Shown in pieces: positions 33,074 to 48,748 of a stretch of DNA of 64,000 nt. Every line of letters begins with the position of its first letter. Position 1 is the first letter of the stretch. The notes under the pieces are model-generated. The model ran no database searches. It had not been told where the DNA came from and saw only the letters and a program-made list of their open reading frames with translations. A program made the position numbers and the translations under genes. Source of the DNA: Paracoccaceae bacterium (GTDB taxonomy: Bacteria > Pseudomonadota > Alphaproteobacteria > Rhodobacterales > Rhodobacteraceae); NCBI GenBank assembly GCA_033723355.1, contig JAWVXG010000003.1:64747-128746 (forward strand). The letters are read 5' to 3'.

Positions 33074-34021
33074 TCAGACCGGTTCGAATATTCCGAAGTT
33101 AGGAAGGTACCGATAGATTTCTTTAAACTGTCCCCTGTCTCGCTCCTTCAGCCATTCAATTTCAGGAATCCCGTCCGATGGCATTAGCCTCTCAAGTTTC
33201 GAAACCTCGAAAGGCGTAAGCTTCGGTATCTTAATAACGAATGCATCATCCGCATTCCTGTAGTAAATTAGCTGATCTAAACAACAGCCATCAAATGCAT
33301 CCTGCTCGTTGCGTTTGTATATAACCCACCCAACAGTCGCCATTGCTGCGCCATCACGATATCTGAAATAGCAAACCTGGGAGCAAATTCTTTGCTCGTC
33401 ATATGGCTTAGTTGCATCAGAATCATGCAGGGCACGCTCTAATGCCGCCCCTAGCGCTTCCCGCCCAAGATCAGAGTATTTTTTCCCAGAAAAGTCCTCT
33501 GGCTTTGAATCTTCGCCCACAAAATCAGGGAACTCTTCTCGAAGCCGATCCATTTCTTTGCCTGAACCAACTGTATCTGGAGGAATCCCACTGGCAAAAG
33601 AGACACAAAGGAAAGAGCCACTCTTGAGCCTCGCCCCAAGCGATGTGATGTCCGCTGCCATGTTTGCCGATAGCCGATCATCGTAATCAAGCCAGCAGAT
33701 CGACCTCCGCTCGTAGCTGAGCTTCGGAATGACATCCCAAGTATATCCGAACTCCATCTTAATACAGGCAAGCGGAGAATTCTGTCGAAAACGCTCCCGC
33801 GCGGCTTCGTCCTCCGTCGCCTCAATACTTACCATGTCGCAAATACCTAGACCACGATGGAACATGCGATGATCAATGAAACCAATTGAGCCCATGCCAA
33901 TATAAGAATACTGATCCACGTGATCGAACCTCAGTCTGCCAACGAGCTCGACTAGCATTTGCCTTTCCGCATGCTTCGCCGGGCGAAGCCTGTAATCGAT
34001 GCTTTCAAAGCTCCCCGTCAA
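33074..34021 (-). CDS. hypothetical protein, coupled partner of the GHKL ATPase (possible Rossmann/methyltransferase-like fold)
   Basis: 4-nt overlap with the upstream ATPase gene. YIGMGSIGFID ... MVSIEATED ... ICWLDYDD resembles the beta1, beta2 and beta4 motifs of class I SAM enzymes. This similarity is weak. Confidence 0.5.
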   Translation of the reverse strand: MTGSFESIDYRLRPAKHAERQMLVELVGRLRFDHVDQYSYIGMGSIGFIDHRMFHRGLGICDMVSIEATEDEAARERFRQNSPLACIKMEFGYTWDVIPKLSYERRSICWLDYDDRLSANMAADITSLGARLKSGSFLCVSFASGIPPDTVGSGKEMDRLREEFPDFVGEDSKPEDFSGKKYSDLGREALGAALERALHDSDATKPYDEQRICSQVCYFRYRDGAAMATVGWVIYKRNEQDAFDGCCLDQLIYYRNADDAFVIKIPKLTPFEVSKLERLMPSDGIPEIEWLKERDRGQFKEIYRYLPNFGIFEPV

Positions 34022-35403
34022 AGATCGTCCTCCTCAACAAGACGAGAAAATGCGAACTCAAAAGATTTGACGCCGACCTCTTTTGCGCTGCTCGCGCCGA
34101 GCGCAGTTTGAAGAGATGCTATTTCTGGCTCAGGTTTCTTGTAGGCAATATTCTTAAGTACCGGACCTCTCTTTACCGTAGCTTTTTGATAGGAGAATGT
34201 CTGCTGTACGGCCATCTTCGAAATCGGCGTGAGCGGCGCTTTTTGTAGAACACGCGAGATCACTTGATCTTCTGGAGAGAAATCCTTCTCGCTATCGAGT
34301 TCATTGAGAAAGTTAATAACAGGGCGAGCTATTTCCACAAGCCTTTGCCGAAGTCTGACAAAATCTGGGTGGTCAAAATCCAAATCTGTTTTTGTTGTAT
34401 TCCATGGAAGTCGATCCGGATCGTTGGAATCAAGAAATGCGTAGCCTCTAAATCTAGTAAACTGATTGTGGAATTTTGGCACGGACACCCCACCGGCACC
34501 AGGAAGATCACCCCAACCGGTTGTCGAACTTTGGTCTGCTGAAACAATGCATCTACCGTTGCAGAAAACATACCAGCCCGCTGCAGCCGGAGCAGATGGT
34601 CCAACTCCAGCATATATGCGACTTTTTAGAAGGCTCGCGCCACCTTCATCTTCGTAGACTTGATAGAATGGTGTGAGCTGCTCACTGGATGCGAGCTGCC
34701 ATGCAGGAGAGATAATTGCATCACCATTAACTCGGATGCTAAGACCGTTTCTGATAAAGTGCTGCTGAGACGTTTTGATCTCATGCACTACCCGATCATT
34801 AAAAAACTTTGTCGAAAAAAGACTGGAAACACCGGAATACAGTTTATTGACTGTGATTTTCGTGCCGGTACCCTCAACTCCTATCTCTTTCGTCTCCAAA
34901 CTTGATATCCTAAAATCCCAGTGCGGATCGGATATCCAAGCAGGTACATCAACCGATATCTCGTAGCTATCGCTCTGCGTCGTGGTCTCAACCTTGAAGT
35001 TCGCCCCCATTTTGAATAGAGATCGCTTCATCCCAACGCCAAATTGACCTACAGAACCGGGGGTGCCGTCAAATCCTTGGTCGCGGCCAAACTTGAACGC
35101 GTATTTCCTTGCAATATCCAGATCAATTCCGCCGCAATTATCTTCTATCGAAAAGCGTTCGGCGCTAAATTGAAGGTCTATCCACAATCCGTCGTACAGG
35201 CCCCCCCCGTCGCCAGCTTCGGAACTGCCGCGCAACCTCTTGGCGCCGTCGACGCAGTTGTCTACAAGGTCGGCGATGGCGTCCTCCAGACTCAGGTCTC
35301 TTGTGATGACCGAGCAGAAGAAGGCCTTTGTGGGGCTTGCATCAACGGATAGCGGGTCGCGCTCCGCCCCTTCCGCTCTGAGCTTGTTTCCGTCGTTCGT
35401 CAC
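34018..35403 (-). CDS. GHKL-superfamily ATPase (HATPase_c_3 / MORC-paraMORC-like)
   Basis: N-box DAIADLVDNCVDGAKR, G1 box IEDNCGGID, G2 box GSVGQFGVGMKRS. Confidence 0.8.
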   Translation of the reverse strand: MTNDGNKLRAEGAERDPLSVDASPTKAFFCSVITRDLSLEDAIADLVDNCVDGAKRLRGSSEAGDGGGLYDGLWIDLQFSAERFSIEDNCGGIDLDIARKYAFKFGRDQGFDGTPGSVGQFGVGMKRSLFKMGANFKVETTTQSDSYEISVDVPAWISDPHWDFRISSLETKEIGVEGTGTKITVNKLYSGVSSLFSTKFFNDRVVHEIKTSQQHFIRNGLSIRVNGDAIISPAWQLASSEQLTPFYQVYEDEGGASLLKSRIYAGVGPSAPAAAGWYVFCNGRCIVSADQSSTTGWGDLPGAGGVSVPKFHNQFTRFRGYAFLDSNDPDRLPWNTTKTDLDFDHPDFVRLRQRLVEIARPVINFLNELDSEKDFSPEDQVISRVLQKAPLTPISKMAVQQTFSYQKATVKRGPVLKNIAYKKPEPEIASLQTALGASSAKEVGVKSFEFAFSRLVEEDDL

Positions 35404-35483
35404 GTGAAATCCTCTTCATACCTGCTCGCTAAAACGCGCGCACCCAACTCGACTTACATACTGCTACATGCTATCGGGCGACA

Positions 35484-36602
35484 ATGAAAATGGAAAACAA
35501 TCGCGTAGTTGACCTGTTCTGTGGATGTTCAGGGCTTGGCCTAGGCGCCCGTCAGGCTGGCTTCGAGATTGCGCTTTCGATCGACATCGACCCCATCTTG
35601 ACCAGTTCCCACAGCAAGAACTTCCCCGGTGAAAGCGTTCACCTGGGAGATGTCGCGTCCATGAGCGGAAGCGAGCTGAAAAAGCTGGCTGGCGGCCCGA
35701 TCAATGGCATAGTGGGCGGGCCGCCGTGCCAAGGGTTTAGCTCCATGGGTAAATCTGACCCAAGTGACGTTAGACGGTCGCTGCTCGGCCATTTTTTTCG
35801 GATCATCTCCGAAGTGGAACCCGATTTCTTCCTGATGGAGAATGTTAAGGGACTGTTGGATCGACGCAACGTCGGTGAACTCGAGGCAGCTTTGGATCAG
35901 GTGAGAGATCGGTATAGCATTGCCGGTCCACATGTATTCAATGCAAAGGATTTTGGCGCAGCGACTAATCGGCCAAGAGTTTTCGTTCTGGGGCTAAAAA
36001 ATGGTGGATCAGAGCGTTTCTTGTCATGCATAGAAGCTAGAAAAAAGCCAGCAATCTCCGTTCGAGACGCAATCGAAGACCTTATTGGCGCAGAGCTTAT
36101 CTCTGATCGCAAATCGGAGATTGACTGGTGGCGAATAGAAGAAGGTGCTCGATTCAGCGAATACTCAAAGACAATGAGGGCTGAAGATGGTATTACGAGC
36201 GGGTTGAGAACTGTGCCCCATAGAGATGAGGTTGCTCAGAGATTCGCATCCGTGTTACCTGGCAAGGTGGATAAGATTGGTAGGCATTATAAGCTCGACT
36301 GGAATGGTCAGTGCCCCACTCTTCGCGCCGGCACTGGCCCGGACAAAGGATCATTTCAATCAGTACGTCCGCTGCATCCAGAACTGCCGCGTGTGATCAA
36401 TGTCCGTGAAGCCGCTCGGCTCCAAGGATTTCCTGATTGGTTCCAGTTTCATGGAACTTCTTGGCACAGCTTTAGAATGATCGGAAATAGTGTATCCCCT
36501 ATCATCTCACGCGAGATTTTTCTAGCCCTGATTGATGCAGGAATTGCAATCTGTGAGCCGCGGCCAAACTGGTCGCCTTATGCATGCACAGTACTGTTAT
36601 AG
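35484..36602 (+). CDS. dcm: DNA (cytosine-5)-methyltransferase
   Basis: Motif I DLFCGCSGLGLG, IV GGPPCQGFS, VI LMENVKGL, VIII TNRPRVFVLG, IX AARLQGFPDWF, X GNSVSP. Confidence 0.92.
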   Translation: MKMENNRVVDLFCGCSGLGLGARQAGFEIALSIDIDPILTSSHSKNFPGESVHLGDVASMSGSELKKLAGGPINGIVGGPPCQGFSSMGKSDPSDVRRSLLGHFFRIISEVEPDFFLMENVKGLLDRRNVGELEAALDQVRDRYSIAGPHVFNAKDFGAATNRPRVFVLGLKNGGSERFLSCIEARKKPAISVRDAIEDLIGAELISDRKSEIDWWRIEEGARFSEYSKTMRAEDGITSGLRTVPHRDEVAQRFASVLPGKVDKIGRHYKLDWNGQCPTLRAGTGPDKGSFQSVRPLHPELPRVINVREAARLQGFPDWFQFHGTSWHSFRMIGNSVSPIISREIFLALIDAGIAICEPRPNWSPYACTVLL

Positions 36603-38546: not shown

Positions 38547-40118
38547 TTGAGTAACGGTCGAGGCAACAGAACGGACGAAGGTGACGAGGTTGGGCAGGAT
38601 ATCCCAGCCGTCGCCTATGTCCGAATGTCGACTGATCACCAAAAATACTCGACCGAGAACCAGCTCGACGTCATCCGCAGCTACGCCGTTGCCCGCGGAC
38701 TGCAGATCTTGCGCGTATTCGAGGATTCAGGGCGTTCCGGGCTGCGGCTCGACGGCCGGGAGGCACTGCAGAACCTGATGGCCGAGGTCCAGTCTGGCCA
38801 GGCCGATTTCAAGGCGATCCTCGTCTATGACGTCAGCCGCTGGGGCCGGTTTCAGGATGCCGACGAGGGCGCCTACCACGAGCATGTCTGTTCACGCGCC
38901 GGGATCCGGGTCCACTACTGCGGCGAGCAGTTCGAGAATGACGGCAGCATCGGCTCGAACCTGCTAAAAACCGTCAAGCGGGTGATGGCCGGGGAATACA
39001 GCCGCGAGCTGTCGGTCAAGGTATTCGCCGGACAGTGCCGCCTCGTGGAACTCGGCTATCGTCAGGGAGGCGCAGCGGGTTACGGGCTGCGGCGCGTGCT
39101 CATCGACGAGCACGGCAATCCGAAGGGCGAACTGTCTCGCGGTGAGCAGAAAAGCCTGCAGACCGACCGCGTGATCCTCGTCCCCGGCCCCGAGGAGGAA
39201 CAGCGGGTCGTCCAGCGCATGTACGAGATGTTCGTCAACGAGATGCGCACGGAGCGTGAGATCGCGGAAATCCTGAACGGCGAAGGACACCGCACCGATC
39301 TCGACCGACTGTGGACGCGGGCCACCGTCCATCAGGTGCTGACGAACGAAAAATACATCGGGAACAATGTTTTCGCGAAGGTATCTTTCAAGCTGAAGCA
39401 GCGCCGCGTTGTGAACCCGCGAAAAATGTGGATCCGCGCGGAGGGTGCTTATCCCGCCATCGTCGATCAAGCGCTGTTCTTGCGCGCAAGAGAGATCGTG
39501 GATGCCCGAAGTCGCCATTTCTCGGATGAAGAACTGCTCGAGGCCCTACGCACCATCCTCAATCGCCAAGGCATGCTGTCGGGGCTGATCATCGACGAGC
39601 AGGACGGCCTGCCGTCCTCCAGTGCCTATCGCAGTCGATTCGGCAGCCTGCTGCGCGCCTACAGACTGATCGGATACGAGCCAGACCGGGACTACAGTTA
39701 CATCGAGGTCAACCGCACGCTGCGACAGGCGCATCCGCAGGTGGTGGCCGAGATTATCGCCGGGGTCACGCGGCAAGGCGGGTCGGCGGTGCAAAACCCG
39801 GAAACCGACCTGCTTCGCGTCAACGATGAGTTCACTTTGTCCATCGTGCTGGCCCGATGCACGTCGACAGAAGCCGGAGCCCTGCGCTGGCGCATCCGAC
39901 TCGACACCGGCCTGGTGCCGGACATCACCATCGCCGTGCGCATGGACGAGCTGAACGAGGTGCCACGCGATTACTACGTGCTGCCCAGCATCGACATGAC
40001 TTTTGGAAAACTGAAGTTCGCCGAGCAAAACGGGCTCGCGCTGGATGCGTACCGCTTCGACACACTCGATTTCTTCTACGCGCTCGCTTCGCGGGCCAGG
40101 ATCGCGGAGGTGGCTTGA
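38547..40118 (+). CDS. large serine recombinase
   Basis: Resolvase catalytic domain AYVRMSTDHQKYSTENQ ... VYDVSRWGR ... GEYSRELS, followed by a long recombinase domain. TTG or GTG start. Confidence 0.88.
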   Translation: MSNGRGNRTDEGDEVGQDIPAVAYVRMSTDHQKYSTENQLDVIRSYAVARGLQILRVFEDSGRSGLRLDGREALQNLMAEVQSGQADFKAILVYDVSRWGRFQDADEGAYHEHVCSRAGIRVHYCGEQFENDGSIGSNLLKTVKRVMAGEYSRELSVKVFAGQCRLVELGYRQGGAAGYGLRRVLIDEHGNPKGELSRGEQKSLQTDRVILVPGPEEEQRVVQRMYEMFVNEMRTEREIAEILNGEGHRTDLDRLWTRATVHQVLTNEKYIGNNVFAKVSFKLKQRRVVNPRKMWIRAEGAYPAIVDQALFLRAREIVDARSRHFSDEELLEALRTILNRQGMLSGLIIDEQDGLPSSSAYRSRFGSLLRAYRLIGYEPDRDYSYIEVNRTLRQAHPQVVAEIIAGVTRQGGSAVQNPETDLLRVNDEFTLSIVLARCTSTEAGALRWRIRLDTGLVPDITIAVRMDELNEVPRDYYVLPSIDMTFGKLKFAEQNGLALDAYRFDTLDFFYALASRARIAEVA

Positions 40119-41026
40119 TGCCCGAAGATTTGGAACTGACCAGCCAGAAGCAAGTGACCCTGATCCCGACCGACCGGATCCGGATCCTCAATCCCCGCGT
40201 CCGCAACCGGCGCGCTTTTGCAGAAATGGTCGAGAACATCGCTCGCATCGGCCTGAAGCGCCCGATCACTGTGGCGCCGCGCGCCGGGACCGATCCGCAG
40301 GAATACGACCTCGTCTGCGGACAGGGCCGGCTCGAGGCTTTCATCGAACTCAAACAGGACAGCATCCCTGCAATCGTGATCGACGCCGACGAGAGCGACT
40401 GCCTTGTCATGAGCCTCGTCGAAAACTGCGCGCGGCGGCAGCACAACCCCATCGACCTGATGCGGGAGATCGGCGCGCTCCGCCAGCGCGGCTACAGCGA
40501 CCGCCAGATTGGCGAGAAGATCGGCGTGTCCACCGAGTATGTAACCATGATCGCCGGGCTTCTGGAGAAGGGAGAGGAGCGTCTGGTATCGGCCGTGGAA
40601 ACCGGAACTCTTCCGCTGAACCTCGCCATCCAGATTTCCAAGACCGATGCGAAGGGCGCTCAGAAGGCGCTTATGGACGCCTACACCCAGAACAAGCTGC
40701 GCGGCCGAAAGCTGGCGCTTGTTCGCCGGCTGATCCAGCAACGCGAACTGCGTGGCCCCCAACTCCAGAACAACCCGCTCGGACGCCGGATAGCAAAGCG
40801 GGGGCTGACCAGTGAAGGCCTTGTCCGGGCTTATCAGCAGGAGGCCACGCGCCAGAAGCTGCTGATCAAGAAGGCAGAGCTCACCCAGAGCCGACTGATG
40901 TTCGTGCGCGAGGCCTTCCGAACGCTCTGCACGGACGCGCATTTCATGACGCTGCTCAGGGCCGAGGGGCTGGAGACGATGCCTGCCGATCTCGCCCGGT
41001 CCGTCACTGAGGGGGCATCGGCATGA
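40118..41026 (+). CDS. ParB N-terminal domain protein
   Basis: ATGA overlap with the recombinase stop. ParB/Srx box LVCGQGRLEAF, followed by an HTH (YSDRQIGEKIGVSTEYV). Confidence 0.75.
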   Translation: MPEDLELTSQKQVTLIPTDRIRILNPRVRNRRAFAEMVENIARIGLKRPITVAPRAGTDPQEYDLVCGQGRLEAFIELKQDSIPAIVIDADESDCLVMSLVENCARRQHNPIDLMREIGALRQRGYSDRQIGEKIGVSTEYVTMIAGLLEKGEERLVSAVETGTLPLNLAIQISKTDAKGAQKALMDAYTQNKLRGRKLALVRRLIQQRELRGPQLQNNPLGRRIAKRGLTSEGLVRAYQQEATRQKLLIKKAELTQSRLMFVREAFRTLCTDAHFMTLLRAEGLETMPADLARSVTEGASA

Positions 41027-41940
41027 AACGCGAGGCCCGCGAGCCCCCACGCAGGGTCAGTCTCGGGTTCGAGGACGACTGCGTCACCCTCCCCATTGAT
41101 GCCATTCTGCCGCTGCGCGCCTTCGGCAAGTCCGCCAAATCCAGCCGGAAGTACCGGCAGATCGTGGCCTCCATCGCCCAGATCGGGATCGTCGAGCCGC
41201 CCGTCGTCGTCCGGAACCCTGACAAGTCCGCAACCTGGTTGCTGCTCGACGGTCACATGCGCATCGAGGCGTTGAAGGACGCAGGCGCGATCGAGGTGGA
41301 ATGCCTGGTCTCCACCGACGATGAAGCCTTCACCTACAACCGGCAGGTTAGCCGTCTCGCGCCGATCCAGGAACACAAGATGATCCGAAAGGCGATTGAG
41401 CGCGGCGTGCCGGAGGAGAAGATCGCGCTCGCGCTCGATCTCAACATGAGCAGCATCAGGCGTAAGGTCCGCCTGCTGGACGGCATCTGTGAGGAAGCCG
41501 TCGCGATCCTGAAGGACAAGCCCGCGACCGGCGCAGTGTTCGACGCGCTGCGCAAGATGAAAACCATGCGCCAGATCGAGGCGGCCGAACTGCTTGTCAA
41601 CGCCAACAACTATTCCGTCGCCTACGTGAACGCGATCCTCGCGGGAACGCCGCAGGCCCAGCTGGTCGAGTCCTCCAAGCCGAAGAAGGTCAAGGGCATT
41701 ACGCCCGAGGCGATGGCACGGATGGAGCAGGAACTGGCCCGCCTGCAGGAAGGGATCGCTTCCATCCAAGACACCTACGGCCAGGACCATCTGCACTTGA
41801 CCGTGATCAAGGGCTACGTCGGCAAGCTGCTCGGGAACGCCCGGGTCGTGCGCTACCTGGCTCAGAACCATCCTGAGTTTCTCGGTGAATTCCAGACCAT
41901 CACCGAGATCACGCCGGCAGAGGCCACTGAGGCCGGGTAG
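41023..41940 (+). CDS. ParB-like protein (RepB-C-terminal-like)
   Basis: ATGA overlap with the upstream gene. ParB box LLLDGHMRIEAL. HTH EEKIALALDLNMSSIRR. Confidence 0.7.
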   Translation: MKREAREPPRRVSLGFEDDCVTLPIDAILPLRAFGKSAKSSRKYRQIVASIAQIGIVEPPVVVRNPDKSATWLLLDGHMRIEALKDAGAIEVECLVSTDDEAFTYNRQVSRLAPIQEHKMIRKAIERGVPEEKIALALDLNMSSIRRKVRLLDGICEEAVAILKDKPATGAVFDALRKMKTMRQIEAAELLVNANNYSVAYVNAILAGTPQAQLVESSKPKKVKGITPEAMARMEQELARLQEGIASIQDTYGQDHLHLTVIKGYVGKLLGNARVVRYLAQNHPEFLGEFQTITEITPAEATEAG

Positions 41941-42430
41941 CGGTTTGCAGCGACGATGGGGACCCGGACCCGATAAGCGCGGGGACCGCAGGAGACGCCG
42001 GACTGTGGGCCGGATCAATCGCGGCGGTGGGGATGGCGGCGAACCCGCTCGGAGCCCACCAGGCCGGCTCGAGATTTCGCCGGCTGCGCAGTCGCGTTTG
42101 CGGCTGCGATCTTTTCGGGGCGTGTCGGAGGCTGAGCCACTCCGGCACGCCCAGTTTTCGCTGAATGAACCGCAGGATTGGTGGAGCCAGTACCGCGCGC
42201 CAACTGCTCTTTGTGGCTAAGGAAACCTTCTGCGCCCATTCGCCGAAACCAACCGGTGACGCTCGTGTCCTTTTCAGATCCGCAATGAACAGCCAGTACT
42301 TCCGAGCAACCACATCAGCTCATCCTCACCCGCCGTGCGACACTCGCTCCCACTCTGCAAAAAGATCATGTTTTGTTCTTGCGATGACGCACTACCTATG
42401 TTTAGTAGGGTTTGGGATAGTTTGACAGCC

Positions 42431-42628
42431 ATGAACGAAGCAGCCGCACCGACAACTCATCTCACCATAAGGGAGGCTGCAAACCTCCTAGGTGTATCTG
42501 TTGCAACGCTAAGAAACTGGGATCGGCAGGACAAACTGAAGCCGCGCCGCCATCCGATCAATGGCTACCGCATGTATGACCGTGCCGAGATCGTGCGGCT
42601 TAAAGAACAAATCGAAGGGAAAGTATGA
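42431..42628 (+). CDS. MerR-family/excisionase-type HTH protein, leader gene of the methyltransferase operon
   Basis: LTIREAANLLGVSVATLRNWDRQDKL. Its stop overlaps the M1 start. Confidence 0.7.
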   Translation: MNEAAAPTTHLTIREAANLLGVSVATLRNWDRQDKLKPRRHPINGYRMYDRAEIVRLKEQIEGKV

Positions 42629-43599
42629 AACCCGCCGCCCAATCTCTCACGGAAAAAGATCAAACGAACCTTCAGCCTGCAAAGCGCCGGGGCCGCCCAC
42701 GCAAAGATGCCGAGCCAAAGGCTATGGTGGAAGCTGAAACAGATAGCGCTGGCCAGGACGACCTTCCCGCCACCGTCGACCCTCGCAATAAACTCAACGA
42801 CCTGACTGCGAAGGAATGGATTCCCGAGACCGTTTCCGTTTGGAATCAGCGCGGGCTTGGTGCCGGGCATCCCGATGCACAGATTGAGCGACAGCATCCT
42901 GCGCCGTTCTCTTTCACGGACGTTGGCCGTCTCATTCGTTTCTTCACCAAGAGAGGCCATACTGTCCTCGACCCCTTCGTTGGCGTTGGCTCAACCTTAA
43001 AGGCCTGCGCGATCGACGAACGCCATGGCATCGGTATCGAACTAAACCCTGATTTTGCGGAGTTGTCTCGGCAGAGGCTTGCTACCGAGGTCCGCGATAT
43101 GTTCTCAACCGTGGACGGGCAGCGCATCCTCGAAGGCGACGCTCGGGATCACTTACCTACACTTGCTGACGAGAGTGTGGATTTTGTCGTAACCAGTCCA
43201 CCCTATTGGTCTATCCTCAAAAAGGTAGACCACAAGGTGCGCCAAGAGCGCACTGGCAAGGGACTAGCCAAAGACTACGGCGAACATGAGGACGACCTTG
43301 CAAAGATCGAAAACTATGACGATTTCTTGCGAGAGCTAGCAGCAATCTTCGGTGAGTGTGCCAGAGTTCTGAAACGTGGCCACTATATGGCAATCATCGT
43401 CAGCGACTTCCGCGACAAATCAAAATACATCATGTTCCACGCCGACTTAGCACGAGCACTGGAAGCCTATGGAATGGAAATGCGCGGCCTTAAGGTCCTG
43501 TATCAGCGCCACAAGAAAGTGTTCCCCTACGGATACCCTTATTCCTACGTCCCCAACATCCACAATCAGTACATCCTAATCCTCCAGAAGCCGAAATAA
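42625..43599 (+). CDS. DNA methyltransferase (N4-cytosine/N6-adenine family; SPPY type)
   Basis: HPAPFSF ... VLDPFVGVGST (AdoMet motif I) lies upstream of the catalytic DFVVTSPPYW. Confidence 0.85.
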   Translation: MKPAAQSLTEKDQTNLQPAKRRGRPRKDAEPKAMVEAETDSAGQDDLPATVDPRNKLNDLTAKEWIPETVSVWNQRGLGAGHPDAQIERQHPAPFSFTDVGRLIRFFTKRGHTVLDPFVGVGSTLKACAIDERHGIGIELNPDFAELSRQRLATEVRDMFSTVDGQRILEGDARDHLPTLADESVDFVVTSPPYWSILKKVDHKVRQERTGKGLAKDYGEHEDDLAKIENYDDFLRELAAIFGECARVLKRGHYMAIIVSDFRDKSKYIMFHADLARALEAYGMEMRGLKVLYQRHKKVFPYGYPYSYVPNIHNQYILILQKPK

Positions 43600-44393
43600 T
43601 GTTAGAATCCCACATCGTTCATGGCGATTGCATTGAAGGGATGGCCGCCCTTGAAGCTGGTTCCTTCAATCTAATTGTGGCCGACCCACCATATAACTTG
43701 AACAAAGATTTTGGTCCGTGGAAGGAGACTGAGCGCAAAGCAGAATGGCGCGATTGGACACGCTCATGGCTAGAGGAAGCCAGCCGCCTCCTCTCTGATG
43801 AAGGTAATATTTTCGTCTATGGGATTCATCACCACATGTGCTGGGTTCAATGCATGATGCTGGAAATGGGATTGATTTACAGGCGTCAGATCATTTGGCA
43901 CTATGAGAATGGCTTTGCCGGCTACGGGAAGCGTTCCCTCAATGCCACCTACGAGCCCTTGCTTTGGTTCTCAAAAACTGACCGCTATATCTTCACGCCC
44001 ATCCGCGAGCCCTACAAAAGTCAGGAACGCCTGAAGCACAAAATAATAAAGAACGGCAAAGTTTGGGAACCCCATCCTGACGGCCGCATGGCTGGTGACA
44101 TTTGGTCATTCCCGACTCTAGCGGGCCGCCGATTCCGTGACGAAAAGGTCAACCACCCGACTCAGAAGCCGCTCTCGATATCTCGAAGAATCGTAAAGCA
44201 CTTCTCCAATCCCGGCGACACGGTGCTTGTGCCTTTTGCCGGCAGTGGGAGCGAGTGCGTAGCGGCCGTTATGGAGGGGAGAGGTTATCTTGGCTTCGAG
44301 CTAAATGGTGAATATATCGAATTGGCGCGCAATCGCATCGACAGTGTTCCGGTCGCCACTGATCCGGACCAGGCAGATATGTTTTCTACTTAG
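43599..44393 (+). CDS. DNA methyltransferase (beta-class N6-adenine/N4-cytosine; DPPY type)
   Basis: Catalytic IVADPPYN near the N-terminus, HPTQKP, then VLVPFAGSGSE. Its start overlaps the M1 stop. Confidence 0.88.
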   Translation: MLESHIVHGDCIEGMAALEAGSFNLIVADPPYNLNKDFGPWKETERKAEWRDWTRSWLEEASRLLSDEGNIFVYGIHHHMCWVQCMMLEMGLIYRRQIIWHYENGFAGYGKRSLNATYEPLLWFSKTDRYIFTPIREPYKSQERLKHKIIKNGKVWEPHPDGRMAGDIWSFPTLAGRRFRDEKVNHPTQKPLSISRRIVKHFSNPGDTVLVPFAGSGSECVAAVMEGRGYLGFELNGEYIELARNRIDSVPVATDPDQADMFST

Positions 44394-45414
44394 CCGGTTT
44401 GAACGCGCCAGCATATGGTTCAATCAGCTTTGCATTATCGAGACCAAGAAATTCGTCCAAGTTCACCACACTTTCACCGATAGTGTATGCGTCGCCGTTA
44501 AAACCGTCGAGCTTCGTGCAATTCCACATGAGTGCGACAAGCGCACCGATCGTGACGGTGCGACATCTGAGACCAAGCACCTTCTCGATGTCGCGGATCA
44601 CCTGATAGTACTCCGAACGGACGTTTGGAAGTGACAGGATGATACTGACAGGATCGATACCATCGACTGCGTAGCCATAGCGGGAGTGCAGCACGGCCAC
44701 GTCCTCGAGAAGCGCGCGTGGGGAATCCAGCACACCTGCGCCTGTTTCAATCTCCGCTACAAATGGTCTTTCGTTGCGCGAGAAACCAACAGCGTCAATG
44801 CGCATGTTGGTATCCCCGCGCCGCCGTGTGCGGGCGTTTAGTCCAACTTCGTTAAGAAGGTTCCTGACGAACAGGGTTGTCCGAGCATCCTCCAGGGACC
44901 CGACAGTTGTCGGAAAATTGGCGGCGGCGGGTGCGTCCAGTGTTGCAATCTGCCCGCTGCGATTCACTTCCGGATGCTCGCCTTTCGTCGCGGCCAAAAC
45001 GACCAGTCCGTCGGGGTCCGCCGTTTCGACGCTGGCGGTCAGACCATTGAGCAAGCTGATTGCGCCGTAGGGGCATCGCCTGATGCACAAACCGCAGCCA
45101 ATGCAATCATCCGCGACGACATAAGCGCTGGAGGCTTCGCTGTCCCAACGGATTGCTCTCGTCGGGCAAACATCGCGGCTGGGATCGCCGGGAAAAGCAT
45201 CGAGAGCGCCGAACAGCGTCAGCTCGCTGTCCTCCTTTTCCATACAGGGTGCGCTGCCGCATCCGAGGCAGCTTCCGGCACCGGAGCGCCCATCAGCCAG
45301 CATGATCGCCGTGCGTGTCTCATGTTCGTAACGCACCCCTTCCACGTTCGCGGCGTAGTGCCGCGCAAATGTCCCAGCTGGGCGTGTGCCTTTGTGAACG
45401 ACGAAATCAGACAT
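44386..45414 (-). CDS. ferredoxin-type 2x[4Fe-4S] domain protein with an uncharacterised C-terminal domain; coupled to the restriction nuclease
   Basis: Eight Cys arranged CLGCGSAPC ... CP and CIGCGLCIRRCP. The start at 45414 overlaps the upstream stop by 8 nt. The C-terminal half contains RIDAV ... FVAEIET. Confidence 0.75.
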   Translation of the reverse strand: MSDFVVHKGTRPAGTFARHYAANVEGVRYEHETRTAIMLADGRSGAGSCLGCGSAPCMEKEDSELTLFGALDAFPGDPSRDVCPTRAIRWDSEASSAYVVADDCIGCGLCIRRCPYGAISLLNGLTASVETADPDGLVVLAATKGEHPEVNRSGQIATLDAPAAANFPTTVGSLEDARTTLFVRNLLNEVGLNARTRRRGDTNMRIDAVGFSRNERPFVAEIETGAGVLDSPRALLEDVAVLHSRYGYAVDGIDPVSIILSLPNVRSEYYQVIRDIEKVLGLRCRTVTIGALVALMWNCTKLDGFNGDAYTIGESVVNLDEFLGLDNAKLIEPYAGAFKPAK

Positions 45415-47116
45415 CAAGGAACCCCCGAAGCTGGCTGAGTTGCCCTGCTTCAATCGTCACGCCATCGCGCATTGCGCGAAGGGTGAGGTGGGCAAGGGTC
45501 GTCAAATCGATCACGCCCAGACGCAGACCAAAGGCTTTGAACACGTCATCAATCAAGTTCGACATCTCGCCGCGTTCGTTGGGAAGGCGATTGCCGACAA
45601 CGAGACTTGCCAAGTCGGGATGTGTTTCCAACCCTCCCCGCGAGAGCAGGATCACCTTGTTTTCGAGCGCCTGCCGAACCGCCTTCGTAGACAGCATGAC
45701 CTCTTCTGTAGGTGACTTGATCTCGACCGGCAGAGCATAGCCATCGACCTTTATATAGGCATCCCAACGCTGGTAATTCACGCCAGCGCGCGAATAATCG
45801 CTCTCAAATCCAAGTATTTGAAAGAGGTGCGTCACTAGCGGGTAGAACGCGGTTTGCGTGTCCTTCGCGTGGTTTTCCGCGAATTTCGCAGCTGCAACAC
45901 TGATCTTGCCGTGAGCTTCCAGCAATTCGGCTAATTCAGCCCTAAGCGTGTCAGGGCCGCCCACGCCAGCCCCTTCTGCCGCGACCAAGTTCGGATGCAC
46001 GAACAAGTGCGAACGGTCGTCCCGCCCGTCCGGGGCTTCCAACGCCATCACACGGCCTTTACCTTCCTCTATGTGGGCGGTTTGCTCACTAGGCGCAAAG
46101 GCGGCGGCAATATCACCAAGCGAAAGGGACTGGAACGGCGAGAACAACAGGTCGCGTCCATCCGCGCCTAACCTCCCGAACACCGGCGCTACGGTAGTTT
46201 CCGCGTCAGCGATGCGCTGCTCAAGCGGCGCGATGTCAAAGCCCGACCGTTCCAGCATACGAAAGTGAGCCACGACGGCGAGCGCGTTGCGCTCTTCCGG
46301 AGCGATCTGCGCCGCCTCATCGGCGCGCAGATCGACGCTGCCGTCTACGCGCTCTGCTAGCATCTGGCCTTTTTCGGTCAGATGGAAGGTTCCGTATTTT
46401 CTGCCATCCCTGAATCTCGCCTGTCCCCGCGTCGCCCATCCCAAATCCCGAAGCAGGGCAATCGGCCATCGCGTGTAGTTCTGCAGCGTGTTGACCTGAA
46501 TCTTCCGCGCATCCGACACCGTTTGCACAGCTTCGCCCGAAGCCACCGCGCTCTCGCGCGCGGCTTCGATAGTCGCTACCACCGCATCCAGATCCTTCTT
46601 GCCGCGATCCCTCGCGGCACTCAGCGGCCCAATGATCATTTCGTCGCGTGACAGGTGGCCGCCGCAAGCCGCCATCACGCGCAAGATGAAGGCAAAAGGT
46701 CGAAGGTCGAAATCGCCCTTCACTGCAAGGATAGGCGTCGGATAAACGATCCCGAGCACGCACTCTTCGAGGAGCGGGCCGAAATCACGCCCGGCCGCGA
46801 CTACTTGCTGGCCAAGCAGTGTGAACGTGAAGTTCAAGGCGCTTTGCGGAGTAGGATGCAGCCATCCCAAAATCCGGAACAATTCAGCATACATCTTGAG
46901 CTGATTGTAGAGCGGATCACGGCTGCGATCAGCGCGGGTAGAACGCGCCACTGCTTCCTCGCCCATGTAGCCTGACGACGTTGCCATATTGGCGGCGACC
47001 ACCGCTGCGACAATCTCGTCGAGGTTTACTGTACGCCCGCTCAATCGCTCGAAAGCCGCCCCATAGACACGTACAAAATTCTCAATTGTGGAGCCTGGAT
47101 TTGGAAATCTCAACAT
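45407..47116 (-). CDS. restriction endonuclease, large subunit (C-terminal PD-(D/E)xK; possibly AlwI/BstNBI-like)
   Basis: RWDAYIKVDGYALPVEIKSP gives a D...E-x-K motif. Lies between the C-protein gene and the FeS gene, convergent with two methyltransferases. Start placed at the ATG at 47116, just after the C-gene stop. Confidence 0.7.
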   Translation of the reverse strand: MLRFPNPGSTIENFVRVYGAAFERLSGRTVNLDEIVAAVVAANMATSSGYMGEEAVARSTRADRSRDPLYNQLKMYAELFRILGWLHPTPQSALNFTFTLLGQQVVAAGRDFGPLLEECVLGIVYPTPILAVKGDFDLRPFAFILRVMAACGGHLSRDEMIIGPLSAARDRGKKDLDAVVATIEAARESAVASGEAVQTVSDARKIQVNTLQNYTRWPIALLRDLGWATRGQARFRDGRKYGTFHLTEKGQMLAERVDGSVDLRADEAAQIAPEERNALAVVAHFRMLERSGFDIAPLEQRIADAETTVAPVFGRLGADGRDLLFSPFQSLSLGDIAAAFAPSEQTAHIEEGKGRVMALEAPDGRDDRSHLFVHPNLVAAEGAGVGGPDTLRAELAELLEAHGKISVAAAKFAENHAKDTQTAFYPLVTHLFQILGFESDYSRAGVNYQRWDAYIKVDGYALPVEIKSPTEEVMLSTKAVRQALENKVILLSRGGLETHPDLASLVVGNRLPNERGEMSNLIDDVFKAFGLRLGVIDLTTLAHLTLRAMRDGVTIEAGQLSQLRGFLDV

Positions 47117-47117
47117 A

Positions 47118-47357
47118 CTATCTATCTGAATTCCTTGCTGAATAAGAAAAAAGTTCGGCCAAATTGATCTCCAGCCCTTCAGCAATTTTCTCGATAACGC
47201 TTAGAGTTGGGTTGCGGTCTCCGCGTTCGACACCGCCTATGTAGCTCCTGTCCAGTCCGGCACGCTCGGCCAACTCTTCTTGTGTGAGCCCAGCCGTCGC
47301 GCGCGCCTGACGGACAGCGTCTCCGAATCTGCTCGAATTCTTGTTTTTTTTCGCCAT
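47118..47357 (-). CDS. XRE-family controller (C) protein
   Basis: 79 aa with the HTH GLTQEELAERAGLDRSYIGGVERGDRNP. Lies immediately upstream of the nuclease, with C-boxes upstream. Confidence 0.85.
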   Translation of the reverse strand: MAKKNKNSSRFGDAVRQARATAGLTQEELAERAGLDRSYIGGVERGDRNPTLSVIEKIAEGLEINLAELFSYSARNSDR

Positions 47358-47380: not shown

Positions 47381-47406
47381 GACTATGAGTCCACAGACTA
47401 TCAGTA
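47381..47406 (-). promoter_or_regulatory. tandem C-box operator
   Basis: GACTATGAGTC-CACA-GACTATCAGTA has the form GACT-N3-AGTC / N4 / GACT-N3-AGTa. It lies 24-49 bp upstream of the C-gene ATG. Confidence 0.7.
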
Positions 47407-47650: not shown

Positions 47651-47905
47651 TCAGAGCAAGCACACCTGAGCCTGTTCACGCATAACGGCGTAGTCCGCGA
47701 GCATCTCCGCGACCGCCGAACCCTCCGGCAGCAGGGCCAGCTCATCAGCCGCGCGCGCCTGAGCCTCGCGGCTGTACTGGACCACTGGCGGGCAAACGAT
47801 GCCGATGGGCGGATTAGAACCGACCGTCGCGCAGCCGCTCAGCAAGCTCGTCGCGATCGCGAGGGCGGCGAGACGCAGCCTCCAGCATCCGGCGTTGGAC
47901 ATCAT
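47651..47905 (-). CDS. outer-membrane lipoprotein, o-spanin candidate
   Basis: Lipobox LLSGC after the signal peptide. Small and Pro-containing. Its start lies inside the preceding gene in another frame. Confidence 0.65.
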   Translation of the reverse strand: MMSNAGCWRLRLAALAIATSLLSGCATVGSNPPIGIVCPPVVQYSREAQARAADELALLPEGSAVAEMLADYAVMREQAQVCLL

Positions 47906-48071
47906 TGGCCTTCTCCGTGGTTTTAAGGCGATCGGCGAGGCGTCCCGCTCGCTCGCCAGACCGCCGAAGCGAAAGCAGGAATAGGAGCACGGCGAGGACG
48001 ATGGCGCCGTAGCGCAGCGCCGCCCGCACCCACGGGCTGGCCGTGATCCCGGTGAGGAGCGCAGCGATCAC
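47814..48071 (-). CDS. small N-terminal-TM protein, i-spanin candidate (or holin)
   Basis: One N-terminal TM segment followed by a charged helical region. Overlaps the lipoprotein gene by 92 nt and the endolysin stop by 4 nt. Confidence 0.5.
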   Translation of the reverse strand: MIAALLTGITASPWVRAALRYGAIVLAVLLFLLSLRRSGERAGRLADRLKTTEKANDVQRRMLEAASRRPRDRDELAERLRDGRF

Positions 48072-48748
48072 CGCCGCCCACGCTTCCAGTCATCGAGCCG
48101 GGCGTAGATCGTGACCGCGATGCCGCCGAGCGCCACGGCGATGAACACCCAGCGCAGGGTGTCGAGATACGGCACAAGCGGCAGGATGGCGGTCTGGGTC
48201 TCGGCCAGGACGCTCTGCGCGACCTCCACGCCCGCAGCACCCAACGTCGCCACACCGGCCGCCCCGCCGCCCTTCATCGTGCGGCTGTCGGCCAGCACCT
48301 CGCGCGCGGGCGGCGTCTCGGCTGCAAATGCCGTCGCCCGCACCGGGAACCGCTCGCCCCACTGGCGCGCGGGGCCGAGGTCGACGTGCATGAAGCCCGA
48401 GCGCGGATAGAACCCGAAGCCGAGGAACCCGACCTCCCGTGCCGCGGCCTCGAACGCCGCCGGGTCGTGGTTCGCCATGGCGATGTCGAAGGCGGCGCCG
48501 TCGAGGTGCTTGGAGCGGGTCGCGCCGCCCACCTTGCGGTTGTGCTCAGGGCTGCGATAGGCGGACCGTACGATCAGCGGCTTGCCCAGCCGGTCGCGCA
48601 GAGCTTGCAGTTTGTCCAGCGCCTCGGGGTGCAGCTTGATCTGCCCCGTGCCACGGCAGGCGATTTCGGCGGGCGAGAAGTTCGGCCACCGCCAAAGGTT
48701 CTGCGGCACATCGCGGAAATGGCGGAAGGTGCGAATGGGTTCAGACAT
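48068..48748 (-). CDS. peptidase M15-type (D-Ala-D-Ala carboxypeptidase-like) endolysin with a C-terminal TM segment
   Basis: SAYRSPEHNRKVGGATRSKHLDGAAFD ... MHVD zinc-ligand pattern of M15 peptidases. Hydrophobic C-terminal helix. Confidence 0.75.
   Translation of the reverse strand: MSEPIRTFRHFRDVPQNLWRWPNFSPAEIACRGTGQIKLHPEALDKLQALRDRLGKPLIVRSAYRSPEHNRKVGGATRSKHLDGAAFDIAMANHDPAAFEAAAREVGFLGFGFYPRSGFMHVDLGPARQWGERFPVRATAFAAETPPAREVLADSRTMKGGGAAGVATLGAAGVEVAQSVLAETQTAILPLVPYLDTLRWVFIAVALGGIAVTIYARLDDWKRGRR

Follow-up and report, generated by a model that had tools for sequence, protein, structure and literature searches.

A predicted two-subunit type II restriction enzyme whose small subunit carries a ferredoxin-type iron-sulfur domain

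The DNA analysed here (the window) is a stretch of 64,000 nucleotides (nt) from a Paracoccaceae bacterium (assembly GCA_033723355.1, contig JAWVXG010000003.1, positions 64,747 to 128,746). It contains a restriction-modification (R-M) cassette in which two adjacent genes, called L and S for the large and small subunits that they are predicted to encode, accompany two methyltransferase genes (M1 and M2) and a controller gene. The subject of this work is S, a protein of 342 amino acids (aa) that joins a ferredoxin-type iron-sulfur (Fe-S) domain to a predicted nuclease domain. The cassette comprises the following features, given in window positions:

42335..42628 (+): small regulator of the MerR/HTH_17 type (HTH, helix-turn-helix), overlapping the start of M1; Pfam MerR E 2e-12
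42625..43599 (+): methyltransferase M1, 324 aa, SPPY, permuted N6/N4 class; Pfam N6_N4_Mtase E 1e-24, PADLOC MTase_II
43599..44393 (+): methyltransferase M2, 264 aa, DPPY, MboIIA-like; Pfam N6_N4_Mtase E 3e-49
44386..45414 (-): predicted small subunit S, 342 aa, ATG start
44515..44889 (-): predicted PD-(D/E)XK nuclease core of S, about aa 176-300; AlphaFold2 (AF2) model, Foldseek, hhalign
44794-44796, 44752-44754 and 44746-44748 (-): predicted active-site codons of S, for D207, E221 and E223, respectively
45049..45282 (-): ferredoxin-type 2x[4Fe-4S] domain of S, about aa 45-122; Pfam Fer4 families, Foldseek, Cys conservation
45407..47116 (-): predicted large subunit L, 569 aa; D452, E465 and K467 (RWDA...PVEIK) invariant
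47118..47357 (-): HTH_3 C (controller) protein, 79 aa; Pfam HTH_3 E 2e-17, PADLOC Control_protein models E 2.6e-18
47382..47405 (-): C-box operator ACTGATAGTC-TGTG-GACTCATAGT, upstream of the C gene; pattern match

The stop codon of the C-protein gene lies 1 nt ahead of the L ATG, and the L stop and S start overlap by 8 nt, the S ATG (45414-45412) and the L stop TGA (45409-45407) being contained in the same string, ATGTCTGA. Coordinates and overlap agree with the initial annotation of this DNA, which had described a 342-aa open reading frame (ORF) overlapping a nuclease gene by 8 nt. The S and M2 genes converge and their 3' ends also overlap by 8 nt (44386-44393), leaving no space for a terminator between them, and this convergent transcription may be of regulatory relevance. 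Comparable tail-to-tail overlaps are present elsewhere too, e.g. one of 17 nt in the related locus L004. A C-box consists of paired palindromes of the GACT-N3-AGTC type, and in a C-controlled operon it lies ahead of an HTH_3 controller gene that is followed by the R gene. The C-box pattern matched once in the window, compared with 0 matches expected from 100 shuffles, and nine related loci also have it a short distance ahead of their C gene; C protein and C-box lie upstream in the window and its close relatives. The HTH_3 gene with its PADLOC control-protein match, together with the C-box, identifies the cassette, as judged from sequence, as a C-protein-controlled type II R-M system. The closest structures in the PDB were 2zie for M1 and M.MboIIA (1g60, E 1.4e-40) for M2. 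The MerR/HTH_17-type regulator, the real start of which is probably an internal ATG near 42431, is kept at the same position in many related loci, suggesting that each operon of the cassette has its own regulator, with the C protein serving the nuclease genes and the MerR-like protein the methylase genes.

Eight of the ten cysteines of S fall into two motifs, C49-x2-C52-x4-C57 ... C83-P84 and C104-x2-C107-x2-C110-x3-C114-P115 (nt 45073-45270). This is the dicluster-ferredoxin spacing that the initial annotation had recognised, and the Pfam scores exceeded the respective cut-offs for Fer4_7 (33.7 and 27 bits), Fer4 (31.5 and 21.1 bits), LdpA_Fe-S-bd (33.0 and 27.6 bits) and Fer4_9 (28.5 and 27 bits). 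The PDB sequences closest to S were Fe-S subunits, ABCE1 and PsaC, and Foldseek searches with the N-terminal part of the structural model described below returned the Fe-S subunits WOR5-beta (6x1o_B, prob 0.94), 2ivf_B and 1siw_B. Conservation was assessed in 130 representatives (P0241-P0389), each standing for one cluster at 50% identity and some only about 30% identical to S. All eight motif cysteines were 97-100% conserved in this set, which together with the Pfam scores exceeds what chance would give; a lack of such conservation had been named with the initial annotation as a refuting outcome. The usual family pattern is C-x2-C-x4-C-x21-26-CP followed by CxxCxxCxxxCP; the second, canonical motif was found in 122 of the 130 sequences. 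Family-wide conservation in the ferredoxin domain is otherwise sparse and extends to few residues besides the predicted cluster ligands. We conclude that S carries a genuine ferredoxin-type dicluster domain, predicted to bind two [4Fe-4S] clusters, and that its ligands, to judge by their conservation, are under strong selection where the domain is present.

Two length variants of ferredoxin-bearing S were encountered. A form of about 271 aa with 11-12 cysteines (L113, L115, L116, also P0306) is without the first ~45 residues, and its linker is shorter; about 100 nt separate L from this short S in L113 and L116, where the two genes do not overlap. In addition, many database entries of 285 aa (P0060, P0067, P0090 and others) lack the first Cys motif. 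These were rejected as true forms, because in L003 (7830-8858) the gene caller had missed the actual start, a GTG that shares the 8-nt overlap with the end of L; by extension from this one checked case, the remaining 285-aa entries were treated as probably mis-called starts.

A first AF2 model of S, built with 22 close homologues, reached a predicted local distance difference test (pLDDT) value of 52.5 and was left out of the fold search, whereas a second model, built with 94 more diverse sequences, reached a pLDDT of 92.6 and a predicted template modelling score (pTM) of 0.92, so that the ferredoxin and nuclease domains are predicted to form a single rigid body. DSSP assigned helices (H) and strands (E) to the second model as H176-189, E193-197, E208-211, E217-223, H226-246 and E254-259, which gives the C-terminal core an alpha-beta-beta-beta-alpha-beta topology, with D207 opening strand 208-211 and E221 and E223 lying within strand 217-223. 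Foldseek searches of the PDB with this model matched EndoMS (5gke, E 8.8e-4, prob 1.0), FokI (2fok, prob 0.97-0.98) and Nt.BspD6I (5lhc/6qnz/2ewf, prob 0.91-0.98), with further matches to Card1/Can2 and EcoO109I, and the matches in a viral library were annotated 'restriction endonuclease'. The AlphaFold and Foldseek check that had been proposed for the protein therefore returned a nuclease fold for the C-terminal domain. On the strength of the model, the C-terminal half of S is a PD-(D/E)XK nuclease domain, and it is predicted to be catalytic.

The PD-(D/E)XK signature consists of an acidic residue opening strand 2 and (D/E)-x-K in strand 3; S has D207 and E221, but the Lys position is occupied by E223. 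Among the 130 representatives, D207 is conserved in 95%, E221 in 97% and E223 in 91%; position 223 is Glu or Asp in 124 sequences and Lys in none. The initial annotation had read the motif as RIDAV-x9-FVAEIET and called its D...E-x-E pattern weak: the motif is present with a spacing of x8, and the pattern is in fact strongly conserved. The predicted active site of S appears to be a D...ExE variant resembling that of BamHI, in which D94, E111 and E113 form a working active site of the D...E-x-E type. The BamHI double substitution D94N/E113K gives an inactive mutant (PMC8845596). The last residue of S (44386-44391) is Lys in 126 of the 130 representatives and Arg in three more. The catalytic Lys may thus have moved to the C-terminus, from where it could act within S itself or extend into L.

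L has a single C-terminal PD-(D/E)XK domain that follows an N-terminal region of ~400 aa, presumed to serve in DNA recognition. The signature RWDA...P(V/I)EIK at its C-terminus was invariant in a 21-sequence alignment, and R-x-D...E-x-K was present in 68 of 68 full-length L homologues. L had no match in Pfam, PADLOC, NCBIfam or PHROGs, and both single-sequence and profile searches against PDB sequences gave noise only. The C-terminal domains of the window's S and L proteins aligned with each other in BLASTP (E 5e-5), and hhalign comparison of the two nuclease domains (prob 88%, E 2.8e-6) paired RIDAV of S with RWDAY of L, and FVAEIET of S with LPVEIKS of L, placing E223 of S at the position of the predicted catalytic K467 of L. 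On these sequence grounds the two nuclease domains are paralogues.

An exhaustive HMMER search of 1.84 billion cluster representatives identified 670 relatives of S (E<=1e-3), 139 of them at E<=1e-30; most among the matches listed were 340-360 aa long and aligned over both halves. In about 100 loci, drawn from close-homologue contigs (L001-L005), genomes (L006-L026) and metagenomes (L087-L166), L lies directly upstream of S, usually overlapping it, with M1 and M2 adjoining. The full arrangement was found in the 5 close-homologue contigs, in 20 of the 21 genome loci (the 21st ends at a contig edge) and in those metagenome loci with long enough contigs, the orientation of M1/M2 relative to L-S being either convergent or co-directional. 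The survey of co-occurrence with the nuclease and the paired methyltransferases, which had been suggested along with the initial annotation, therefore found S homologues linked to these genes. The hosts belong to Proteobacteria, Chloroflexota, Nitrospinota, Planctomycetes, Bacteroidota, Elusimicrobiota and other phyla; searches of PLSDB plasmids (tblastn) and E. coli genomes (blastn) gave no matches. The methyltransferases are the most conserved genes of the set, suggesting shared or similar specificity. M1 and M2 are fused as one ORF in L018. The L gene is split in L013, L026 and L158, and a 2.2-kb insertion lies between L and S in L021; a split or interrupted L with retained methylases represents the usual decay of restriction genes. 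S, M1 and M2 remain intact in these four loci, in which L is split by frameshift or separated.

Pfam has no entry for the S family other than Fer4, and matches of S in PADLOC, NCBIfam and PHROGs were limited to generic Fer4. The exact record of the window's protein (MDX1820053.1, from a Paracoccaceae metagenome-assembled genome) is named '4Fe-4S dicluster domain-containing protein', and other members of the family carry public names such as 'ferredoxin', 'Fe-S-cluster-containing hydrogenase component 2', 'PreA subunit' or 'hypothetical protein'. A metabolic ferredoxin adjoining the R-M genes by chance was ruled out by the strict synteny across ~100 loci, and a radical S-adenosylmethionine (radical-SAM) or glycosylase type was ruled out for S as no such motifs or matches were found.

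The initial annotation had offered, as one possibility, that S is a small subunit cleaving the second strand. This is supported by four independent lines, namely the fold, paralogy with L, the conserved acidic triad and linkage to L and two methyltransferases, and we consider it probable that S is the second-strand-cutting subunit of an L+S restriction enzyme of a Type IIT/IIS-like kind, with an Fe-S domain that has a structural or docking role. L would recognise an asymmetric site and cut one strand via D452/E465/K467, and S would cut the other via its paralogous PD-(D/E)XK domain and D207/E221/E223. The 8-nt overlap would couple synthesis of S to that of L, and M1 (SPPY) and M2 (DPPY, MboIIA-like) would each protect one strand. 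The ferredoxin domain would pack rigidly on the nuclease domain as a cluster-dependent structural or docking module, outside the phosphodiester chemistry; insertion and integrity of the clusters would be needed for functional S and hence for double-strand cleavage.

In Type IIT enzymes, site recognition and cutting of one strand fall to the larger subunit, while the second strand is cut by the smaller one, which is without specificity; the system includes two methyltransferases (PMC4081073). The cassette shows corresponding features, namely S with its predicted catalytic domain beside L with one D...ExK site, and M1 with M2. The nearest analogue is R.BspD6I/R.BstNBI, which consists of the 604-aa nickase Nt.BspD6I and a 186-aa small subunit that copies the cleavage domain of the large one. 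Common to both systems are a large subunit with a recognition region (presumed in the case of L) and one PD-(D/E)XK site, a related catalytic domain encoded downstream as a small subunit and thought to cut the second strand, and an asymmetric-site logic that calls for methylation on both strands (PMC4081073). The part of Nt.BspD6I matched by S in Foldseek is its cleavage domain. Unlike the BspD6I small subunit, S is 342 aa long and has an N-terminal 2x[4Fe-4S] domain and a D...ExE site, and the N-terminal region of L is unrelated to any known domain. Because there is no sequence homology to a characterised member, we place the system as one that would work like BspD6I, outside its sequence family. 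BsrDI and BtsI are likewise heterodimers, with a large (B) subunit that by itself is a site-specific nickase and a second catalytic site on the small (A) subunit (PMC1950550), but the large subunit carries its canonical site N-terminally, the small-subunit site is non-canonical (PD-Xn-E-X12-QR) and there is no Fe-S domain; no similarity of L or S to BsrDI/BtsI was found. FokI and EndoMS/NucS, the best structural matches of the C-terminal domain of S, also differ from it: FokI is a single chain that dimerises via identical cleavage domains, EndoMS acts in mismatch repair, and neither has an Fe-S domain.

Several points weigh against this assignment. The likeness of S to BspD6I and FokI is at the level of the fold only, with whole-chain template modelling (TM) scores of 0.2-0.3, and PDB sequence searches with S and L gave no sequence-level match to either enzyme. 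With Glu in place of the canonical Lys, S may lack activity. The first Cys motif departs from the canonical form (C-x2-C-x4-C-x21-26-CP), and the N-terminal region of L was without a match to known DNA-binding domains in the domain libraries named above. Restriction activity, heterodimer formation, the assignment of strands, the recognition site, and the content, binding and role of the clusters are predictions for every member of the family, and the structural role given to the clusters is a default assumption, made by analogy with other nucleic-acid enzymes.

Nucleases with an iron-sulfur cluster are known from AddB, Cas4, Dna2 and Exo5, which are likewise of the PD-(D/E)XK type. Each of these proteins has one cluster, the four Cys ligands of which form a staple around the nuclease core. 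In S, by contrast, all eight conserved cysteines are at residues 49-114, N-terminal to the core (176-300), and none brackets it; they form a separate domain of predicted ferredoxin fold with two predicted clusters. The distinction from the staple of AddB, Cas4 and Dna2 had been drawn correctly in the initial annotation, and an AddB/Cas4-type cluster in S was ruled out by the Cys layout. The N-terminal dicluster domain of ABCE1/RLI and the Fe-S domain of LdpA are, as in S, 2x[4Fe-4S] appendages of a non-redox or sensing protein, but their partner domains are an ABC ATPase and a clock-input protein, respectively, without a link to DNA cleavage. Full-text literature searches found no description of the S family. 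The 2014 review of Type II enzymes does not mention iron, Fe-S or ferredoxin (PMC4081073), and in a 2025 review of R-M systems iron-sulfur appears only within a reference on DndC, in agreement with the earlier remark that ferredoxin-like Fe-S domains are undescribed in type II enzymes. As far as the literature was searched, a ferredoxin-type Fe-S domain is new for restriction enzymes, and S and L would represent a type II restriction enzyme of heterodimeric design, distinguished by a new cofactor domain, its function being predicted.

Part of the family lacks the ferredoxin domain. A tblastn search of phage genomes gave a single match, in Clostridium phage CWou-2020b (L086, CP063968.1, 4119-6441), with the gene order HTH, M, M, a 563-aa protein 31% identical to L, and a 214-aa protein. 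The latter matches residues 198-342 of S only (34% identity), retains D...EVE and ends in Lys. Metagenomes contributed 26 further loci without the domain (L087-L112), in 25 of which the S gene is uncut and encodes 210-243 aa. R-x-D...E-x-E is retained in all of these uncut short forms, L is upstream wherever the contig reaches, and M1/M2 are present where the contig is long enough; no ORF with a ferredoxin motif was found in the CWou-2020b locus or in L087-L112. The short S forms, of about 215 aa, are monophyletic in a nuclease-domain tree built by neighbour joining, and so are their L partners, which indicates that L and S co-diversify. The sources of this clade are mostly gut and fermentation metagenomes, together with the one Clostridium botulinum phage. 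Since the clade has the same L, M1 and M2, the Fe-S module appears to be accessory and unneeded for the core mechanism. When the tree was rooted on L domains, the ferredoxin-bearing L026 was basal to both clades; this hints at loss of the ferredoxin domain in the short forms, although the placement depends on a single long branch and was not trusted.

The most interesting alternative, possible in our view though unlikely, is that the ferredoxin domain is a sensor, and that oxidation, nitrosylation, iron starvation or incomplete maturation switches S off. The enzyme would then fall from a double-strand cutter to an L nickase, or to nothing, protecting the host under stress or delaying lethal cleavage after entry into a new cell. 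It is conceivable, and we put it no higher than tentatively, that S completes the double-strand break only in its holo form, when both clusters are intact, the dicluster serving as an Fe-S switch; the near-universal C-terminal Lys might in that case be a displaced catalytic residue positioned by the switch. If true, oxidative or nitrosative stress, iron limitation or the maturation lag after horizontal transfer would turn the system into a harmless nickase, so that self-killing and the establishment in new hosts would come under a metabolic or redox checkpoint in addition to the C-protein timer. The eight cysteines are conserved in aerobes and anaerobes alike, and the scarcity of conserved non-ligand residues along with the lack of a redox-partner gene in the cassette is easier to reconcile with a sensor or scaffold than with an electron-transfer chain. 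LdpA is a redox-sensing clock protein, and its Fe-S domain is among the Pfam matches above cut-off. Gut and fermentation metagenomes and a Clostridium phage, the main sources of the domain-less clade, are settings that would gain little from oxygen sensing. However, ferredoxin-bearing members also occur in strict anaerobes (Desulfoprunum, Anaerolineae, Dehalococcoidia), the redox lability of the clusters is itself presumed, and the difference in habitat is anecdotal and confounded with phylogeny, given that the forms without the domain all belong to one clade. The redox or Fe-S checkpoint raised in the initial annotation is neither supported nor excluded; the ferredoxin-less clade demonstrates only that the domain is dispensable for the core chemistry.

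Less likely still, and improbable in our estimation, is that S is a dead pseudo-nuclease that only activates or positions L, e.g. as a mimic of a second L cleavage domain in the manner of FokI dimerisation, with L molecules cutting both strands. The Lys of E-x-K is replaced by Glu or Asp in those 124 of 130 S proteins and retained in none, and the paralogous nuclease domains of S and L could pair as the cleavage domains of FokI do. A dead site would not be expected, however, to keep its triad at 91-97% among sequences ~30% identical, the ferredoxin-less clade included; D...E-x-E is an active configuration in BamHI, and the C-terminal Lys (126/130) could serve as the missing base. A role of the ferredoxin domain in redox chemistry on DNA or a cofactor (e.g. 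sensing or processing of modified or damaged bases, or long-range DNA charge transport), making the system more than a hydrolytic restriction enzyme, seems very improbable to us: the dicluster is of a low-potential type that normally transfers electrons and is rigidly joined to the DNA-cleaving domain (pTM 0.92), yet an entire clade with the same L, M1 and M2 works without it, no locus holds a partner oxidoreductase, radical-SAM or glycosylase gene, and M1/M2 are ordinary N6/N4 enzymes.

A second-strand-cutting S with an Fe-S module would be of interest for several reasons. Few DNA enzymes have been studied as thoroughly as those of type II restriction, none of which was found described with an iron-sulfur cofactor. 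The S family, with its 670 clusters at 50% identity, is large, spread over many phyla and strictly tied to one R-M gene set; it goes unrecognised by current defence and domain libraries, and database records routinely mislabel S as a metabolic ferredoxin or hydrogenase component, so that correcting the annotation would avoid inflated counts of 'ferredoxin' in metagenomes. A new restriction enzyme of the large-plus-small kind is a potential source of a new natural nickase. The sister clade without the Fe-S module provides a natural with/without comparison, and the cassette offers a simple system in which to ask what Fe-S clusters do in DNA-cleaving enzymes.

The cassette lies inside a lower-GC island at ~33-47.4 kb of the window, in which the G+C content (GC) falls from ~65-70% to 47-60%. 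The island and its boundary contain the following additional features:

33074-34021 (-): Methyltransf_35
34018-35403 (-): HATPase_c_3 protein
35484-36602 (+): C5 cytosine DNA methylase
38547-40118: large serine recombinase
40118-41026 and 41023-41940: two RepB/ParB-like genes
47651-48071 (-): two small overlapping ORFs after the Peptidase_M15 gene
48068-48748 (-): Peptidase_M15 (endolysin-like) gene

The serine recombinase and RepB/ParB-like genes adjoin the cassette, and related cassettes adjoin Rep, ParA, integrase and resolvase genes. The recombinase and RepB/ParB-like genes, together with the drop in GC, suggest an integrated mobile element. A second methylase module (33074-36602) shares the low-GC island with the cassette and could be another defence or epigenetic system. 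At the boundary of the island, the genes at 47651-48748 look like a lysis module of a phage or gene transfer agent (GTA).

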